Sequence record: PP488543.1
Strand: one strand, 5' to 3'
From: Escherichia phage BP9
Length of the DNA stretch: 64,000 nucleotides
Position 1 is the stretch's first letter. Every line of letters begins with the position of its first letter. The translations under genes and the position numbers were made by a program. The notes under the pieces are model-generated. The model ran no database searches. It saw only the letters and a program-made list of their open reading frames with translations, and was not told the origin of the DNA. Positions 53,531 through 63,146 of the stretch are shown piece by piece.

Positions 53531-54814
53531 TCATTCAAGCACCTCCCAAGTATCTGGGTTAACATTTCGGACGCAGATACCGACAGGGAATTGGTAGTTG
53601 TTGTCTTCTGTCCTTGCTTGGTATTTGAAGGTGACAAACTTGCCGATCATTTCCTGCATCCTGTCATAGCTACGCTCCTCGTGCGTGCCTTTCATCTTCA
53701 TTTTAACAACAATACCTTCCTTGTCAACGCAGATAAGAACACCTTCATCATTCTTATCTTTCTCAACGTCAATAACTTTCACCTCTGCGTCGTTGAACTT
53801 TTTCCATTTCAATGCTTCAGATGTTCGCTGACCGTACTCGTATTTACCGCAGAAATTACGCATGATAGTACCTTCATATCCTTCGGACATGAATATACCA
53901 ACAGATTCTTCGCAATGATCAACTGTGTACGCAAGCTCTGCGTCAACAACCTTGATATGGTCAAGCATCAGAGTGGTAACGGTATCCTCTGCATCCATAA
54001 GATCCTTGCAGCGTCCAGACTCTGTTTCTGGATCCCACCACACCTTGTCGCTAGGAATATCAAAAATGTGATACTCCAGATCGTAGCTACAGTACCCACC
54101 GTAACGCAAATCATCACGAACAGGCTCAACATCGACAGGAATATCTATCTTGTTGAAGTTTTTGTATGTTGATAAGCCTGCCTTAATTGCTGCATGACGG
54201 CGTTTTTTATCTGCCTCATAGTCTTTATCGATCTCGGCCTGAATCTCTTCCTGTGTGCGCCACCGTTTTGCAAGAGACACTATTTTCTGCAAAGGAAGAC
54301 CATGAATGTATAGTTCCCCATCAAGTTGTTTAATCCCAGTGGTGGAATGGAAAGAACGAAGTTGCTCTAAAAGCTTTCCTTGAATAGGGTAGGACTTATT
54401 ACCACGGGAAATAAATTTAGGCTCACCATTTTGGAAAACAACAAGCAGACGAAGGCCATCTAACTTACGCAAGATCCAGCAAGGTAATTTAAGTGCCTTG
54501 CCACGCTTCAGGTAGTCATGCACCAGCATTGGTAAAAGGTCAACACCCTGCTCGCAATCTTCCATGTTTTCAACATACCCCAGACGGACTTGTTTTTCCC
54601 ACTTACTGATCGCTTCCAGCTCGGCCTGTTGCTCAGCTGTAGTTTCATTGGCACGACCCACGTTCTTAGGTGTGCAGATCGTCTCTTTGTATTGCAGTTT
54701 ACCATCAAGCTTACCAAACTCTACGATAACCTTATCACCATCCGTGAATACTTTCCACTGTTGGTAGCTGCCATCTTTATTCAGTGCGTACAGTGTTGTT
54801 TTGATCTGATGCAT
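53531..54814 (-). CDS. DNA ligase (covalent nucleotidyltransferase; ATP vs NAD type unresolved)
   Basis: Motif I KLDGLR, motif III DGELYI, motif IV EGTIMR, motif V KWKK. Confidence 0.65.
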   Translation of the reverse strand: MHQIKTTLYALNKDGSYQQWKVFTDGDKVIVEFGKLDGKLQYKETICTPKNVGRANETTAEQQAELEAISKWEKQVRLGYVENMEDCEQGVDLLPMLVHDYLKRGKALKLPCWILRKLDGLRLLVVFQNGEPKFISRGNKSYPIQGKLLEQLRSFHSTTGIKQLDGELYIHGLPLQKIVSLAKRWRTQEEIQAEIDKDYEADKKRRHAAIKAGLSTYKNFNKIDIPVDVEPVRDDLRYGGYCSYDLEYHIFDIPSDKVWWDPETESGRCKDLMDAEDTVTTLMLDHIKVVDAELAYTVDHCEESVGIFMSEGYEGTIMRNFCGKYEYGQRTSEALKWKKFNDAEVKVIDVEKDKNDEGVLICVDKEGIVVKMKMKGTHEERSYDRMQEMIGKFVTFKYQARTEDNNYQFPVGICVRNVNPDTWEVLE

Positions 54815-55378: not shown

Positions 55379-55440
55379 AACTAACTACCTCACTGCATAC
55401 TTTCCATAATAAGTAAAGCCGGGTAATCCCGGCTATGTTG

Positions 55441-56154
55441 TTAAATATACTCTGTTACATCCTTGAAGCTCGAAGGCTTCATGATCTTACCTTTGCTGTC
55501 AAGGAATATAATAACTTTATTGCCGTTGTAGAACTCCTCTTTAGCAACGAAACCTTCGTAGCGACCACCAAAACGACGCTCAAGATCTTTAATCTCCAAC
55601 TCGATGAGTTGTTCAGCAGGCATATCTGCACTGGCACCGTGTGAATACCGTAGATGGTTGATCCGTGCAAACTTACTGTCATTAGATTTGAGAACCTTCC
55701 GCATCATCCCACACACATCGCCGCGAAGCTGGAACAGCAAAGCTGTTGACAACTCCGCTAAGCGGTAAGCTGACGCTCTTTGCTTGGATGTGTTTTTCGC
55801 AGCGATCAGTGTATCATAGAACTCACCGATCTTGAACTTAAGACCTCGTGGATTATCAAACAGGTTTGACCACTTTTCGTGATTGTCATTAACAAGATAA
55901 GCTGCATAACTTGTGACAACGTGAAGATCGCAGGCCTCTTTTAGCAGGTGATCTCCACCATCACCTTTCTCCAGCTCTTCCAAAACCTCATTGAACTCTT
56001 CCTCAATGAAGCTAAGCTGTAATTCGAATGGTGTGTATGATTTTTTCACTTTAGCTGCCACACGGTTCCAGTTTTCCACCCAGTTGGCAGACCAAAGGTA
56101 GTTTTCAGGCTGGGACAGTTTTTCAAGGTTGTCGATTAATTTGGTGTTCAGCAT
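55441..56154 (-). CDS. all-alpha NTP pyrophosphohydrolase-like (MazG / dimeric dUTPase-like)
   Basis: Acidic helix FIEEEFNEVLEELEKGD followed by KEACDLHVV; weak assignment. Confidence 0.35.
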   Translation of the reverse strand: MLNTKLIDNLEKLSQPENYLWSANWVENWNRVAAKVKKSYTPFELQLSFIEEEFNEVLEELEKGDGGDHLLKEACDLHVVTSYAAYLVNDNHEKWSNLFDNPRGLKFKIGEFYDTLIAAKNTSKQRASAYRLAELSTALLFQLRGDVCGMMRKVLKSNDSKFARINHLRYSHGASADMPAEQLIELEIKDLERRFGGRYEGFVAKEEFYNGNKVIIFLDSKGKIMKPSSFKDVTEYI

Positions 56155-56167
56155 TAAAGGTCTCCTT

Positions 56168-56929
56168 TTAAAGTTCCATAAAGTTTTCTACAGTTTCAAT
56201 AAATGCTTTATCAGAGAAAGCGTCAACAGCACCGTTAAACCATACAGGGATCCCGCGATCCTCATATTGATAAAGGTCGCTACGTGAAATGCCACTTCCA
56301 TCTGCACTCTGCGAATCATACTTGTTTACAATCAGCAGCTTTGTGCCTTTACAAGTAGCAGGAAACAATTCCCAGTTAAAATTAATAACTGTGTTAGAAC
56401 AACCTACCAGGATCACCATATCATTGCTTGTGAGAGATGTCAACAGGTCATACATGTCTGTATACTTAGGAGCAACCTCACCGAAGAACACTACATTGGG
56501 CTTAACCCAGGTATACTTGCCTGTATCTACCTCCGTGTATCCGATATTTTTAATTACATCATTACCTTCATCATCTTCGTAGGTGATTTCAGGCAAATAC
56601 CCGTGGACATGTAAAATATCTTCATGTTTTACACCAGCACGCTCCAGCAAATCATCTACATTGGTGGTAAGGTTGATCACACGACCAGACCAGCGGGAAT
56701 ACCACTCAGCGATCCGAAGATGTGCAAGGTTAGGATCAACACTGCCCAGAGCTACACGACGTGCATTGTAAAAATCATGCACCTTATAGTAGTTCTTGGC
56801 AAAGGTGTGGATGTTGCACACCTCATCGATGCTGAAATTCTCCCACATTGCAGTGCTACCAGATCGGAAAGTGGGAATACCAGATTCAGCGCTCAAACCC
56901 GCACCGGATATAATAATCAGTCGTCGCAT
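56168..56929 (-). CDS. Sir2-family (sirtuin) protein lacking Zn-ribbon cysteines
   Basis: GAGLSAESGIPTFRSGS, TNVDDL, HG and NVVFFGE sirtuin motifs; no CxxC pairs between HG and VFFGE. Confidence 0.7.
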   Translation of the reverse strand: MRRLIIISGAGLSAESGIPTFRSGSTAMWENFSIDEVCNIHTFAKNYYKVHDFYNARRVALGSVDPNLAHLRIAEWYSRWSGRVINLTTNVDDLLERAGVKHEDILHVHGYLPEITYEDDEGNDVIKNIGYTEVDTGKYTWVKPNVVFFGEVAPKYTDMYDLLTSLTSNDMVILVGCSNTVINFNWELFPATCKGTKLLIVNKYDSQSADGSGISRSDLYQYEDRGIPVWFNGAVDAFSDKAFIETVENFMEL

Positions 56930-56937
56930 AAGTGCCC

Positions 56938-57288
56938 TCAGTAGATGTTTTGTTTAATCTCTATTCCAAACTTTTTAAACGAGTCAGCTGCAAGCATGAA
57001 TTTACGAGCCGCTGATGGATTAGAAGTATGCACGAAAATCTTCACGTTGTCAACTACAGGAGGCTTACCAAATACAAATTTTTCCTCCAACATAGATAGG
57101 CAATCGTACCCTTCGAATACCTCTCCAAGGTCGTTGTCCATATGCCACTCAGAAACGCGTCTGTAGAGCTTTTTATTATCGTTAATAAAATCCATAAACT
57201 CGGAGGAATTCTTTAGCCAAATAGCGTCTGGGAGCCCATAATTTGAAGGATCTCTCAGATCATCCAGCCACACAATCAACTTCTTCAT
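56938..57288 (-). CDS. hypothetical protein (116 aa)
   Basis: ATGA coupling to the RNA ligase-like gene; MKKLIVWLDDLRDP...VHTSNP. Confidence 0.45.
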   Translation of the reverse strand: MKKLIVWLDDLRDPSNYGLPDAIWLKNSSEFMDFINDNKKLYRRVSEWHMDNDLGEVFEGYDCLSMLEEKFVFGKPPVVDNVKIFVHTSNPSAARKFMLAADSFKKFGIEIKQNIY

Positions 57289-58220
57289 TGCATATAGTCC
57301 TCGTTGTGGAAATAGTGGTCAAGTATCTCACGGCGTTCCTGCTCCAGGAGGCAGTTCCACACATCTTCTGTGTAATTGCTACGAATGAAGTTTACCATGC
57401 CGTAAAACTCTTCATCAACACGTTTAAAGATATCATCATCCCAAATCTTCCAAGCTTTACCCCTCATTACGGCCTTCCGTGCCAGATAGTATGGAGACTT
57501 GATCTTCAGCTGCAGGTCGTAAGGGTAGTAAGGCTTACGGATCATATACCCTTCACCTCTTGTTTCTGCAGCTAATTCTTTTGCATAGCTGAACGGAATT
57601 TCACGCACAGTGTGAGGACGTTTTGCACCAAGGTATTTGGCAATCCCATCTAAAGCTGCTTCTGGTAGCATTATTCCAGAATCATTATATCTGCAACCTA
57701 TCAAATATGCGCCATGATCTTCTTGAACAATATGCGGATCTGAAGGGTGACAAATTTCAAACATGAATGTCATGTTTTCATTGCCCATAACCTTCTTGAT
57801 AAGATCTAAATTACCACATTGCTCCTGGATGGTTTCCTTTGCGAGGTTACAATATGGAGAATCAAGAGATCCGGTTGTTGAGAACAATAGTTCACCTTTA
57901 TGAGATGATACCACACCGAGGAATCCGTTCTTTTTCTCTACCGCAGTCACAAGTTTACTGTCCGGTAGGTTGGTGGAGTTTTCTCCCAAGTTAAACACTT
58001 TTGTGAAGGGCCATGCCACAACATTTCCTTCATTCCCGACAACAATGCCTCGGCACTCCAGTAAACGAGGGGACAAATGCCATAAATTGTTGTAAAATAC
58101 TTTTCTAGCATATTTATAGATCTTTAACCCGAGATCTGGGTAATATCTGCTGGTTACAAGACCTTTGTCAACTAGGTCGTCTGCATTAAAATACTTCATC
58201 ATACGTTCCTCATTTGTCAT
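57285..58220 (-). CDS. RNA ligase-like nucleotidyltransferase
   Basis: K-x-N-G (VEKKNGFLG), F-E (MTFMFEICH), EG motif (GEGYMIRKP), K-x-K (LKIKSP); distinct from the DNA ligase at 53531. Confidence 0.5.
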   Translation of the reverse strand: MTNEERMMKYFNADDLVDKGLVTSRYYPDLGLKIYKYARKVFYNNLWHLSPRLLECRGIVVGNEGNVVAWPFTKVFNLGENSTNLPDSKLVTAVEKKNGFLGVVSSHKGELLFSTTGSLDSPYCNLAKETIQEQCGNLDLIKKVMGNENMTFMFEICHPSDPHIVQEDHGAYLIGCRYNDSGIMLPEAALDGIAKYLGAKRPHTVREIPFSYAKELAAETRGEGYMIRKPYYPYDLQLKIKSPYYLARKAVMRGKAWKIWDDDIFKRVDEEFYGMVNFIRSNYTEDVWNCLLEQERREILDHYFHNEDYMQ

Positions 58221-58263
58221 TTTGTCAGTCTATCCTGCCACACAAATAACCTAGTGTCAACAC

Positions 58264-58292
58264 TTGAAATTAACAAAACAGTTAGGTATACT
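58264..58292 (+). promoter_or_regulatory. sigma70-like promoter (TTGAAA-17-TATACT) in divergent region
   Basis: Track ORF start at 58264 is the -35 TTG; real start at 58321. Confidence 0.45.
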
Positions 58293-58320
58293 ATCGTTGA
58301 AATTAAAACGGAGGGTCACT

Positions 58321-58728
58321 ATGTCTAAAATGCTATATATCGTGCGTGGTCTACCAGGGTCTGGCAAATCAACACTGGCAAATGCGCTATCTTTAGAGGG
58401 TCTGTATCCACATTTTGAGAACGACATGTTCTGGTACGACGATGATGGAAATTACAACTGGGATGCAAGTAAAGTCACACTTGCAGCAAAATGGTGCAAA
58501 GATAACGTAGAAGATATGATGCGTATGGGATACGACCGTATCGTGGTAAGTAATACGTTTACAAAAGAAAAATATGTGCAAAAATATATTGACATGGCAA
58601 TCAGTTATGGGTATAGTTATACCGTAATCGTGGTTGAAAACCGCCACGGTAATAAAAGCATTCATGCTTCAGACGAGGTTGTGGATCGTATGGAACGCCA
58701 ACTTAAAAACTGCATTAAACTTAAATGA
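58321..58728 (+). CDS. P-loop polynucleotide kinase-like protein
   Basis: ATG after GGAGGG; Walker A GLPGSGKST; 135 aa. Confidence 0.55.
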   Translation: MSKMLYIVRGLPGSGKSTLANALSLEGLYPHFENDMFWYDDDGNYNWDASKVTLAAKWCKDNVEDMMRMGYDRIVVSNTFTKEKYVQKYIDMAISYGYSYTVIVVENRHGNKSIHASDEVVDRMERQLKNCIKLK

Positions 58729-58735
58729 GGAATGT

Positions 58736-59290
58736 ATGAAATACTTTGTAACAAGCGACACACACTTTCTCCACCAGCGGGTCATGGAGTTTGATTCATG
58801 TCAAAAACACAGATCTCAGTATGATCACAATCTTGACAGTATGAATGCGGGAATCATCGCCGAGTGGAACTCTGTTGTGTCACCTGCAGACACTGTGTTC
58901 CACTTGGGGGATATTGCGTGCACTAATGATAAGAATATCAACAACTTACTTCCAGATATTCTAAATATGTTGAACGGACATATTATTCTTGTTCGTGGCA
59001 ACCATGACACAAGGACGACTGTCAGAATTATGAAAGAGTTCTATCATGAGGTTGTAGATTATTACGAGCTTCGCCACAACAAGAATTTGATCTGTATGAG
59101 CCATTACCAATTTGCAAAGTGGAACAGAAAGCATCACGGATCAGTCCAACTGTTCGGTCATGCTCACGGAACCACACAACAGTTGTTTGGCAGGCAGCTT
59201 GATGTCGGTTGGGATGTGTGGGGGAGACTCTTACCATTAGAAGAGGCATACCGTATTGCAATGAGTTTTGCTATTGACAGCGGGGAGTAA
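58736..59290 (+). CDS. calcineurin-type metallophosphoesterase
   Basis: SDTHF, HLGDIA, VRGNHD, GHAHG metallophosphatase motifs. Confidence 0.65.
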   Translation: MKYFVTSDTHFLHQRVMEFDSCQKHRSQYDHNLDSMNAGIIAEWNSVVSPADTVFHLGDIACTNDKNINNLLPDILNMLNGHIILVRGNHDTRTTVRIMKEFYHEVVDYYELRHNKNLICMSHYQFAKWNRKHHGSVQLFGHAHGTTQQLFGRQLDVGWDVWGRLLPLEEAYRIAMSFAIDSGE

Positions 59291-59337
59291 TCCCTGCTAT
59301 TTTAAAGAAAATTGCCACACAAGGAGAATCAGGAGAT

Positions 59338-59688
59338 ATGAAAGATGGGGATAAGCTGCTATATCTTAAAGTCCCCCTTGAAATACTGTCTATGTCAAAA
59401 GTTTTGAATGACACAACTGGAGAGGTTGTTGTTCTTGACTTGTATGACAAGATTGTATACTGCTACCTGCACAACTGGTATAAGCTTGGAGGAAATTCAC
59501 GCTTCACACCCAGCACAAGGAAAATTGCAGCAGATGTTGGGATAAAGAAAACAAAAGCAGCAGCGTGCGTTAAAACTTTAGAGTGTGCAGGGGTGGTTGA
59601 AACATCCACACAAGGGAGAGGTAAAAGATGCACATTTTCCAAAGTTTTGCCGCCAGAAGAAGTTATTCGAATGTCAACAACTGGTTAG
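59338..59688 (+). CDS. putative HTH DNA-binding protein (116 aa)
   Basis: RBS AAGGAG; helix-turn-helix-like TRKIAADVGIKKTKAAACVKTLE. Confidence 0.45.
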   Translation: MKDGDKLLYLKVPLEILSMSKVLNDTTGEVVVLDLYDKIVYCYLHNWYKLGGNSRFTPSTRKIAADVGIKKTKAAACVKTLECAGVVETSTQGRGKRCTFSKVLPPEEVIRMSTTG

Positions 59689-62206: not shown

Positions 62207-62281
62207 GCCCTGTTAGCTTAGTGGATAAAGCAGCGGCCTTCTAAGCCGTTGACACTGGTTCGAGTCCAGTACGGGGTGCCA
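62207..62281 (+). tRNA. tRNA-Arg (anticodon TCT)
   Basis: Hand-folded cloverleaf: acceptor GCCCTGT/ACGGGGT, D-stem GCTT/AAGC, anticodon loop CTTCTAA, T-loop TTCGAGT, encoded CCA. Confidence 0.7.
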
Positions 62282-62411
62282 AGTTCTTTTTAATGTAGCT
62301 TACTTTAGCAGAGTAAATCTTCGGCAAGTGGCGGTAACCACTTTACCGATACCTCATAGTTAGTGGTTAGAACACTAGCTATTTTAAAAAGAATTTAAAT
62401 ATTAGTATTTA

Positions 62412-62499
62412 GGTGAGTTAATTCCGTAGGGGTAGCGGGGCAGACTGTAAATCTGTTATCATTGCGATTCGGGTGGTTCGACTCCATCACTCACCACCA
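62412..62499 (+). tRNA. tRNA-Tyr (anticodon GTA), long variable arm
   Basis: Acceptor GGTGAGT/ACTCACC, anticodon loop CTGTAAA, T-loop TTCGACT, CCA encoded; D-arm irregular in hand fold. Confidence 0.55.
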
Positions 62500-62613
62500 A
62501 ATTTATATTTTTAGATGCATAAATCATACAGATAATGGCATTGATATTTATCGTCGTTTATACTAGTCACTAACTGCTCGAAAATCAGTGTCATTATCAG
62601 TATAATTTATAAA

Positions 62614-62704
62614 GGAGGGTAGGGAGCAATGGTGCTCAAGCGGTCTTGAAAACCGTCCCATTGAGGATGACTCGATGATGGTTCGATTCCATTACTCTCC
62701 GCCA
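62614..62704 (+). tRNA. tRNA-Ser (anticodon TGA), long variable arm
   Basis: Acceptor GGAGGGT/ACTCTCC, anticodon loop CTTGAAA, ~20-nt variable arm, T-loop TTCGATT, CCA encoded. Confidence 0.6.
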
Positions 62705-62802
62705 CATTGTTGACCTTGTAATTAAGCGAAAGCCGGAAGCAGAACCGGATTATCAAATGTTACAGTCGTCATCGCCGACTAGCAACATGGTCAACATACT
62801 GA

Positions 62803-62901
62803 GCTAGGTAAGCCCTTTGGCAAGGGCGAGGATTTTTAATCCTGAAAATAGACGAGGTAGTCGTTGAATACATAGGTGGTTCGATTCCACCGCCTAGCAC
62901 C
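62803..62901 (+). tRNA. aberrant tRNA-like element (99 nt; anticodon-loop TTT, oversized variable region)
   Basis: Acceptor GCTAGGT/GCCTAGC, D-arm GCCC/GGGC, loop TTTTTAA, T-arm GGTGG-TTCGATT-CCACC, but ~30 nt between anticodon stem and T-arm. Confidence 0.3.
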
Positions 62902-62906
62902 TTTTT

Positions 62907-62982
62907 GCTGATGTAGCACAATTGGTAGTGCAATTGATTTGTAATCAATAGGTTGCAGGTTCAAGTCCTGCCATCAGCACCA
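62907..62982 (+). tRNA. tRNA-Thr (anticodon TGT)
   Basis: Acceptor GCTGATG/CATCAGC, D-stem GCAC/GTGC, anticodon loop TTTGTAA, T-loop TTCAAGT, CCA encoded. Confidence 0.75.
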
Positions 62983-62983
62983 A

Positions 62984-63058
62984 GGCCCTGTAGCTGGAAG
63001 GTTCAAGCAAGCGACTCATAATCGCCAGACGGTGGTTCAATTCCACCCAGGGCCACCA
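62984..63058 (+). tRNA. tRNA-Met (anticodon CAT; Ile2 not excluded)
   Basis: Acceptor GGCCCTG/CAGGGCC, anticodon loop CTCATAA, T-loop TTCAATT, CCA encoded. Confidence 0.7.
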
Positions 63059-63069
63059 AATAGTAAATA

Positions 63070-63146
63070 CTCCGCGTAGCTCAGCTTGGTAGAGCGCCTG
63101 ATTTGGGATCAGGAGGTCGAGTGTTCGAATCACTCCGTGGAGACCA
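63070..63146 (+). tRNA. tRNA-Pro (anticodon TGG)
   Basis: Acceptor CTCCGCG/CGTGGAG, D-stem GCTC/GAGC, anticodon loop TTTGGGA, T-loop TTCGAAT, CCA encoded. Confidence 0.75.

Follow-up and report, generated by a model that had tools for sequence, protein, structure and literature searches.

Does the region at positions 57285-59290 of Escherichia phage BP9 (sequence record PP488543.1, of which a stretch of 64,000 nucleotides, hereafter the window, was analyzed) encode a pathway that mends broken RNA? Effectors that cleave RNA or tRNA are a major arm of bacterial defense, among them PrrC, RloC, the retron and PARIS effectors and Cas13a, and to our knowledge T4 Pnkp with Rnl1 is the only phage repair answer that is understood experimentally. 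An initial annotation, made from the letters of the window, had read three of its genes as a ligase, a kinase and a metallophosphatase that together repair RNA. We recovered all three open reading frames (ORFs) at the proposed positions and strands, as three separate polypeptides, and their assignment to an RNA repair set is supported by family matches, by linkage across unrelated phage lineages and by fusions. We conclude that this is a split and differently built variant of the repair found in T4 and in bacterial Pnkp, that it is real, coherent and widespread, and that the locus probably specifies an RNA heal-and-seal pathway of separate small proteins. The basis of this reading is formed by family assignments, intact catalytic residues, predicted folds, conserved linkage and natural domain fusions.

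A short ligase, a minimal kinase and a stand-alone phosphoesterase

The gene at 57285-58220 on the minus strand, listed as 311 aa, encodes a short ATP-dependent RNA ligase of the Rnl1 family. The protein matched the Pfam family RNA_lig_T4_1 from end to end (profile positions 1-227 of 227; E=9.3e-15; 55.5 bits against a cut-off of 28.3) as well as PHROG 562 (3.9e-66), and its nucleotidyltransferase motifs, K96-K-N98-G99, F154-E155, E223-G224-Y and K239-I-K241, were invariant across 36 homologues, with K96 as the predicted adenylylated lysine. Searching the PDB with the single ligase sequence gave nothing useful and a homologue profile was needed; such a profile, built from seven diverse phage homologues, retrieved T4 Rnl1 (2c5u, 1.4e-14) and no other entry type below E=0.8. 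In this alignment K96, E155, E223 and K239/K241 fall on K99, E159, E227 and K240/K242 of T4 Rnl1, whose corresponding motifs read KEDG, FEF, EGY and KIK.

Structural comparison led to the same family. Using an AlphaFold (AF2) model based on the 36 homologues, with a mean predicted local distance difference test (pLDDT) score of 91, Foldseek ranked T4 Rnl1 at the top, followed by Rnl3 and fungal Trl1 ligase domains, and DNA ligases came far behind (the viral enzyme of African swine fever virus at ~4e-5, cellular ATP-dependent enzymes only at ~1e-2). Profile hidden Markov models and structure thus agree in putting the protein with RNA ligases, and not with DNA ligases or capping enzymes, and it is distinct, as had been claimed, from the DNA ligase encoded at 53531-54814, which carries DNA_ligase_A_M and OB_2 domains. 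Since it scored only 38.1 bits against the NCBIfam equivalog for T4 RnlA, TIGR02308, whose cut-off is 242.25, we consider it a member of a distant Rnl1 subfamily and no orthologue of T4 RnlA. The gene probably starts in fact at M7 (58202), for a product of 305 aa: a GAGGA ribosome-binding site precedes M7, homologues begin at this residue, and the annotated length in the BASEL record is 918 nt. Lengths in the family range from 290 to 325 aa.

On the plus strand, 58321-58728 encodes a predicted minimal polynucleotide 5'-hydroxyl kinase of 135 aa, which matched AAA_33 (3.5e-10), PHROG 2071 (1.3e-54) and PHROG 505, 'polynucleotide kinase' (3.6e-10), and has the P-loop G10-LPGSGKST (G10-T18). Here, too, the single sequence returned nothing useful from the PDB, where a profile was needed, and no relatives from genome contigs. 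The best solved relatives of the profile were all RNA-repair 5'-kinases, namely T4 Pnkp (1e-8), Capnocytophaga Pnkp1 (1.8e-6), the Rhizopus Trl1 kinase and the Clostridium thermocellum Pnkp (CthPnkp) kinase, and matches to adenylate, gluconate, nucleoside and deoxynucleoside monophosphate (dNMP) kinases were several orders of magnitude weaker, by no fewer than five for the adenylate and dNMP kinases, so that the proposed likeness to polynucleotide kinases held against the adenylate and dNMP kinases. Residue D35, predicted to be catalytic, aligns with the general base D35 of T4 Pnkp and was invariant in 7 diverse homologues. The protein ends at 135 aa, without a fused C-terminal HAD (DxDGT) 3'-phosphatase domain, and the best 120 matches of a kinase-profile homologue search were likewise all stand-alone proteins of 130-150 aa, with no fusions among them.

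The gene at 58736-59290, also on the plus strand, encodes a stand-alone binuclear metallophosphoesterase (MPP) of 184 aa that belongs to the aq_1665 clade. It matched Metallophos (2.5e-6; 28.5 bits against a cut-off of 21.5) and PHROG 547 (1.3e-51), and no NCBIfam family above its cut-off. Its motifs are complete (D8/H10, G58-D59, G88-N89-H90-D91, H123 and G141-H142-A-H144), and all but D91 were invariant in 6 homologues; with that residue apart, the motifs quoted in the initial annotation for the ligase, the kinase and the MPP were all present and invariant in homologues. When its profile was compared with the PDB, the only clear solved relative was the uncharacterized Aquifex protein aq_1665 (1xm7, 2.4e-18), and neither lambda-phosphatase (1g5b) nor the CthPnkp phosphatase (4j6o) was found. 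The family is very large, with 11,662 library representatives at E <= 0.001, a count that includes more distant relatives, most of them stand-alone proteins. Calcineurin-like phosphatases have been mentioned for some phage RNA repair systems (PMC7824862). We predict that this MPP is the 3'-end healing enzyme of the locus, acting as a 2',3'-cyclic phosphodiesterase and/or a 3'-phosphatase.

Linkage of the three families across phages

The 4.3 kb around the trio are 100% identical to Escherichia phage vB_EcoM_YN3 and share 90-99% identity with over 100 rV5-like members of the genus Vequintavirus, with at least 95% identity in 96 records. In the BASEL phage MaxTheCat the counterpart genes are labeled 'RNA ligase', 'polynucleotide kinase' and 'putative phosphoresterase'. 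About 20 'Campylobacter phage' records (MG065644-MG065690, host Campylobacter jejuni) are also ~97% identical to the Vequintavirus region, and their host labels look doubtful.

Beyond this genus, the trio is linked on one strand in six other phage lineages. Henunavirus, Vibrio phage VnaP, Justusliebigvirus, Pakpunavirus and the unclassified P. syringae phage phiK7A1 all run MPP, ligase, kinase in one direction; their genes frequently touch or overlap, and small ORFs are interposed in some (one extra ORF between ligase and kinase in phiK7A1). Saclayvirus has the order ligase, kinase, MPP. Kinase and ligase also track each other in tblastn records per host genus, with 197 and 199 records in Escherichia, 173 and 177 in Pseudomonas, 36 and 40 in Klebsiella, and 24 and 26 in Acinetobacter. 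Altogether the kinase family was found in 621 phage records, the ligase in 814 and the MPP in 1,406. The more than 600 sequenced phages with the kinase infect Escherichia, Pseudomonas, Vibrio, Klebsiella and Acinetobacter and include therapy candidates, and the ligase and MPP counts match for these hosts.

To this we added a metagenomic sample of 80 IMG/VR loci retrieved with the kinase, which form 57 clusters after dereplication at 90% identity. Of the 80 loci, 51 contained the MPP and 35 this ligase, without exception on the same strand as the kinase, and at least five gene orders occurred; in 20 of the 51 co-directional MPP loci the gap between MPP and kinase was at most 50 bp. Where the kinase at first seemed to stand alone, other repair parts adjoined it: an Rnl5-like ligase with an OB domain and RNA_ligase, an HD hydrolase, or a HAD_PNKP phosphatase encoded by a gene of its own, as in the phage contig L033. 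With such alternatives counted, an RNA ligase was present in 57/80 loci, a phosphoesterase in 55/80 and both in 47/80, compared with 8 loci for a DNA ligase and 10 for NAD-salvage genes; the corresponding numbers among the 57 dereplicated clusters were 39 for RNA ligase, 42 for phosphoesterase, 8 for DNA ligase and 10 for NAD salvage. The kinase family thus teams up with various ligases and phosphatases.

Several further features of these loci were recorded. Immediately after the kinase, Pakpunavirus K8 (L005 4418-7244) and phiK7A1 (L007 4404-8378) have genes for NAMPT and a PRPP-synthetase-like protein; in L033 (4731-5660) a PRPP-synthetase gene alone adjoins the kinase, and Staphylococcus Kayvirus Stab20 (L010 6994-8465) has both kinds of gene at a distance of 2.5 kb from its MPP. 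This link to NAD salvage is recurrent and in the minority, at 10/80 kinase loci. In Acinetobacter phage B09_Aci05 (L006 3081-8402) a gene downstream of the kinase that is annotated as MutT/Nudix is a metallophosphoesterase by Pfam, with a second RNA ligase, of the Rnl2 type, 3 kb beyond it.

Natural fusions and cellular relatives

Fusions emerged only through the MPP and ligase searches, in the latter case with the ligase profile scanned across genome contigs. In one library representative (P0418) this MPP family is fused to this kinase family, the kinase part being 44% identical to that of the window (E=2e-28), and another (P0323) joins the MPP to the RNA-repair domain HAD_SAK_2. On chromosomes of Cardiobacteriaceae, kinase and ligase of these families are fused, and a gene of this MPP family comes next. 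A kinase fusion in Vibrio phage Kuja (Ackermannviridae, L008 3995-5044) was set aside as evidence, its C-terminal region of ~210 aa having no Pfam ligase domain. The Kuja record names this gene 'DNA ligase' and places its start within the kinase domain.

Among cellular proteins, the homologues closest to the ligase (31-34% identity) are encoded on chromosomes of Leptolyngbyaceae, where they form the C-terminal domain of kinase-MPP-ligase proteins of 712-772 aa. The first domain of these proteins matches the kinase of CthPnkp (4gp6, 3.5e-11) and the second its phosphatase (4j6o, 2.5e-24), and neither is of the phage subfamily; a BLASTP comparison of the window MPP with the cyanobacterial MPP domain gave E=0.2. 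Because the cyanobacterial kinase and MPP belong to other subfamilies, the phage set would do the same job with two non-orthologous parts. On the chromosome of Leptolyngbya sp. PCC 7375 (L108 4726-9647), the Pnkp-type protein is found together with a Pol-beta nucleotidyltransferase paired with DUF29 and with RtcB, and no Hen1 was seen there; RtcB lies 1.6 kb downstream of the Pnkp-type protein, making this a chromosomal locus with two RNA ligases.

Gene layout and neighboring genes

Within the window the genes form two back-to-back units, a leftward one of ligase, cREC, Sir2-family and MazG-like genes and a rightward one of kinase and MPP. The trio proposed by the initial annotation is real, and the module is larger than was claimed, the cREC (cyclic-phosphate processing receiver) gene at 56938-57288 having been overlooked. 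The 'divergent promoter' that had been placed between the two units is borne out only in part. In the intergenic control region (58255-58292), which holds back-to-back -35 hexamers identified as consensus matches only, a promoter scan called a good sigma-70-like site on the plus strand, TTGAAA-17-TATACT at 58264-58292 (-35 at 58264-58269, TATACT at 58287-58292), upstream of the kinase, which is also preceded by a GGAGG ribosome-binding site. The minus strand has only a perfect -35, TTGACA at 58260-58255, with a weak extended -10, TGg-CAGGAT, which was read by eye and not called by the scan.

The leftward unit continues past cREC with a Sir2-family protein of 253 aa (56168-56929, minus strand; Pfam SIR2 1.9e-27, PHROG 2162) and, as its last gene, a homologue of MazG-like nucleotide pyrophosphohydrolases of 237 aa (55441-56154, minus strand; PHROG 671, 5.8e-22). 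A GC-rich hairpin, AGCCGGG-loop-CCCGGCT, lies just past the MazG-like gene at 55417-55434; it is terminator-like, is listed on the minus strand, was found on both strands as a consensus match only, and likely marks the end of the leftward transcription unit. The Sir2-family protein has the GAGxS, TxNxD and HG motifs, lacks cysteines at the position of the sirtuin zinc ribbon, and scored below every NCBIfam CobB cut-off. On the other side, the MPP gene is followed on the plus strand by a gene for a small HTH protein (59338-59688; HTH_36/DUF6945; PHROG 12838, 'replication initiation protein'), which has its own promoter-like site at 59274-59303.

The cREC protein, of 116 aa, is encoded on the minus strand, and its start overlaps the stop codon of the ligase (ATGA) within the same leftward unit. 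It matched Pfam PF20274 (1.7e-14) and is predicted to adopt a CheY-like receiver fold, with the acidic pocket Asp/Asp/Asp/Thr/Lys conserved, and no histidine kinase was found near its gene. Iyer, Anantharaman, Krishnan, Burroughs and Aravind (2021; PMC7824862) predicted that RNA ligases are served by cRec domains that process cyclic phosphate ends, and the cREC-ligase context seen here agrees with that prediction. The cREC protein is a candidate accessory factor that may process a 2',3'-cyclic phosphate or a 3'-phosphate. The gene adjoins the ligase throughout Vequintavirinae; in Stephanstirmvirinae tblastn placed it ~2 kb upstream of the trio, and in Proteus phage Privateer 2.5 kb separate it from RtcB. 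It is thus found near RNA ligases of two unrelated families. Pfam detected no cREC in the genes adjoining the kinase of Henunavirus, Justusliebigvirus and P. syringae phage phiK7A1; across the metagenomic sample it was present in 4/80 kinase loci, and most trio lineages outside phages that infect Enterobacteria have no detectable cREC.

We treat the Sir2-family and MazG-like genes as neighbors and not as members of the module, because they are rare at kinase loci (4/80 and 6/80, respectively); the Sir2 neighbor is specific to this lineage. A further arrangement is thinkable because cREC, Sir2 and ligase are consecutive and the acidic pocket of cREC is intact: the three might form a second, NAD+-dependent repair branch akin to fungal and plant tRNA splicing. 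There, cREC would convert the 2',3'-cyclic phosphate into a 2'-phosphate and 3'-OH, the Rnl1-type ligase would seal the break and leave the 2'-phosphate at the junction, and the Zn-less Sir2 would strip that phosphate using NAD+, as a Tpt1/KptA-like 2'-phosphotransferase on a sirtuin fold, with MPP and kinase serving the conventional branch. We give this arrangement very little credence, and the presence of Sir2 at only 4/80 kinase loci counts against it.

The phage tRNA genes, whose nearness to the module had been pointed out in the initial annotation, are indeed close in the window, the first starting at 62207, 2.9 kb past the end of the MPP gene. Compared with phage MaxTheCat, the tRNA region (62207-63146, plus strand) holds an insertion of 127 bp between tRNA-Arg and tRNA-Tyr. 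Rfam and ARAGORN gave differing calls in this region. A tRNA at 62412-62496 (loop GTA, Tyr) was found by Rfam and missed by ARAGORN. Two members are atypical: the Ser(TGA) gene called by ARAGORN at 62614-62704 scores only as a sub-threshold tRNA-Sec (41 vs 47 bits), and an element of 97 nt at 62803-62899, whose loop contains TTT (Lys), reaches just 31 bits.

A heal-and-seal model and its alternatives

From these observations we infer the enzymatic activities, the order of the steps, the division of labor between MPP and cREC, the tRNA substrate and a role in countering host anticodon nucleases or RNase effectors. In the model that we favor, a metal-independent ribonuclease would first cut an RNA, most plausibly a tRNA, leaving a 2',3'-cyclic phosphate and a 5'-OH. 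The MPP of 184 aa would then open the cyclic end and remove the 3' phosphate to give a 3'-OH, possibly with cREC helping or replacing it. The P-loop kinase of 135 aa would move a nucleoside triphosphate (NTP) phosphate onto the 5'-OH, with D35 as general base, and finally the short Rnl1-type ligase would adenylylate itself on K96, pass the AMP to the 5'-phosphate and join the ends.

A number of points weigh against this model. We searched the literature and found no experimental study or measured activity of the trio proteins. The tRNA preference of T4 Rnl1 comes from its C-terminal domain of ~120 aa, and the window ligase has no domain of this size, its AF2 model ending after motif V in only ~65 helical residues (four short helices, 243-305). 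The kinase has no counterpart of Arg38, which follows the catalytic Asp of T4 Pnkp by three residues and touches the phosphate of the substrate: the window protein reads D35-M-F-W at this place, and homologues read D-x-Y-x-Y/M. At 16 of the 52 kinase loci with full flanks neither partner family was present within 6 kb, and the 3 of them that were inspected had other repair parts. The proximity of tRNA genes is not conserved, since at six other phage loci the trio has no tRNA gene within 4 kb, and it is therefore no evidence of function. Vequintavirinae are, moreover, still restricted by one or more tRNA-cleaving defenses, among them retron Eco2 (PMC12916289).

The weakest link is the role of the MPP in RNA repair, because its clade, that of aq_1665, is without any characterized member and is also found in many phages with no kinase or ligase nearby, such as Kayvirus Stab20 and 114-kb Vibrio phages. 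Only the kinase and ligase, perhaps with cREC, might therefore repair RNA, the MPP being merely co-expressed and engaged in degrading cyclic-nucleotide or dinucleoside-polyphosphate signals or in dephosphorylating proteins. This alternative draws on the far wider spread of the MPP family (1,406 phage records vs 621 and 814 for kinase and ligase), including its occurrence apart from both partners in Kayvirus and the Vibrio phages; on its weak PDB relatives, which include the phosphodiesterases GpdQ and Rv0805 and not the CthPnkp phosphatase; and on the possibility that cREC could supply 3'-end healing (PMC7824862). However, the MPP is on the kinase strand in 51/80 loci, with a gap of at most 50 bp in 20; it is fused to the kinase family in P0418 and to HAD_SAK_2 in P0323, and it directly follows the kinase-ligase fusion of Cardiobacteriaceae. 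A cREC substitute, for its part, is present in only 4/80 loci and was undetected in most trio lineages outside Enterobacteria phages. We consider it unlikely that the MPP has an unrelated job.

Ligases of the Rnl type also have non-repair roles in archaea and eukaryotes, and the module could instead process phage or host RNAs during normal development, for example in the maturation of unusual tRNA precursors or in RNA circularization. The tRNA cluster 2.9 kb away, with atypical members such as the 97-nt UUU tRNA-like gene and the sub-threshold Ser(UGA)-like gene, would fit such a role, but the six other trio loci with no tRNA genes within 4 kb do not, and we saw no tRNA-splicing endonuclease or intron-like feature. 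The interchangeable pairing of the kinase with different ligases and phosphatases also speaks against dedicated processing, mix-and-match of parts having been described for conflict systems (PMC7824862). Developmental RNA processing appears quite improbable on this evidence.

T4 Pnkp accepts both RNA and DNA, which raises the further alternative that kinase and MPP heal DNA ends for a nearby DNA ligase, or that the kinase acts in NAD+ or nucleotide salvage. The window encodes an ATP-dependent DNA ligase at a distance of 2.5 kb, and Henunavirus, Justusliebigvirus and phiK7A1 have one within a few kb; PRPP-synthetase and NAMPT genes follow the kinase in Pakpunavirus K8 and phiK7A1, with a PRPP synthetase near it in L033; and the MPP shows a faint match to the ligase-associated PdeM model. 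That match, of 18.6 bits, is nevertheless far below the PdeM cut-off of 150 bits, nicotinamide riboside and dNMP-type kinases reached only E >= 0.005 against the kinase profile vs 1e-8 for T4 Pnkp, and the fusions observed are to RNA ligase, not DNA ligase. We rejected an association of the kinase with DNA ligase or NAD salvage on the locus counts, which among dereplicated loci are 8/57 and 10/57, respectively, vs 39/57 for RNA ligase, and hold both forms of this alternative to be very unlikely. The chance that the ligase homologue is mainly a tail-fiber attachment catalyst is negligible, as nothing speaks for it but the label 'RNA ligase and tail fiber protein attachment catalyst', which many records have taken over from T4 gp63, whereas the gene lies among nucleic-acid enzymes and not tail genes, its adenylyltransferase residues are all invariant in 36 homologues, and it is linked or fused to end-healing enzymes.

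If its proteins are active as the heal-and-seal model predicts, the trio would be a structurally different solution to RNA damage, helping to explain phage host range on tRNase-armed strains. It would also assign a function to a large uncharacterized MPP clade and to a minimal polynucleotide kinase of 135 aa, and could offer compact new enzymes for RNA end manipulation.

Comparison with known RNA repair systems

A close precedent is T4, a lytic myovirus that likewise encodes a 5'-kinase, 3'-end healing and sealing, used in its case for tRNA repair against the anticodon nuclease PrrC. T4 Rnl1 belongs to the same Pfam family as the window ligase and is its best match in sequence and fold, and the T4 Pnkp kinase domain is the best solved relative of the window kinase, with the catalytic Asp aligned. 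The window differs from T4 in its phosphatase, a separate binuclear metallophosphoesterase where T4 has a HAD domain fused to the kinase, and in its ligase, which has ~305-311 aa vs 374 and is without the long C-terminal domain.

Bacterial Pnkp, as in C. thermocellum, performs the same three reactions within one polypeptide, its 3'-end step likewise using a metallophosphoesterase, whereas the phage uses three ORFs on two strands. The parts differ as well: the CthPnkp MPP is of the lambda-phosphatase type (DxH, GDxxDRG, GNHE), in contrast to the LGDIAC and GNHD of the window MPP, which belongs to a different clade, and the window kinase is of a different subfamily from that of CthPnkp. The Pnkp1-Rnl-Hen1 system of Capnocytophaga gingivalis resembles the window in having the ligase as a separate polypeptide, and its Pnkp1 kinase is the third-best solved match of the window kinase (4xrp, 1.8e-6), but Pnkp1 keeps kinase and phosphatase fused. 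In the Capnocytophaga system the Hen1 methyltransferase marks the repaired junction; no Hen1-like methyltransferase was found among the nine genes scanned between 53.5 and 60.9 kb of the window.

Two comparisons concern phages other than T4. The cRec-ligase systems of PMC7824862 share with the window a cREC gene that directly follows and overlaps an RNA ligase gene and is itself followed by a gene for NAD+-using Sir2; those systems were predicted from comparisons of jumbo phages, whereas the phage analyzed here has 137 kb and also carries an MPP that might do the same step. In the Pakpunavirus phage Adele (PMC12846349) the same kinase and ligase families adjoin. The 2025 paper on that phage proposed that kinase and ligase restore cleaved tRNA, stated that the kinase 'lacks 3'-phosphatase domain', and named no phosphatase (PMC12846349). 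The linked MPP is a candidate for the missing phosphatase of this Pakpunavirus-type pair, judging from gene linkage; the MPP ... ligase-kinase arrangement of Pakpunavirus is co-directional, as opposed to the divergent units of the window.

The scheme of kinase, phosphatase and ligase is itself textbook knowledge for T4 and bacterial Pnkp, and as relatives of the three proteins are already annotated accordingly, as RNA ligase, polynucleotide kinase and phosphoesterase, the novelty of the assignment is modest. What is added here to the known systems is the MPP as candidate phosphatase, the mix-and-match of parts, the ties through fusions and synteny, and the kinship of the phage ligase to the ligase domain of cyanobacterial Pnkp-type proteins.

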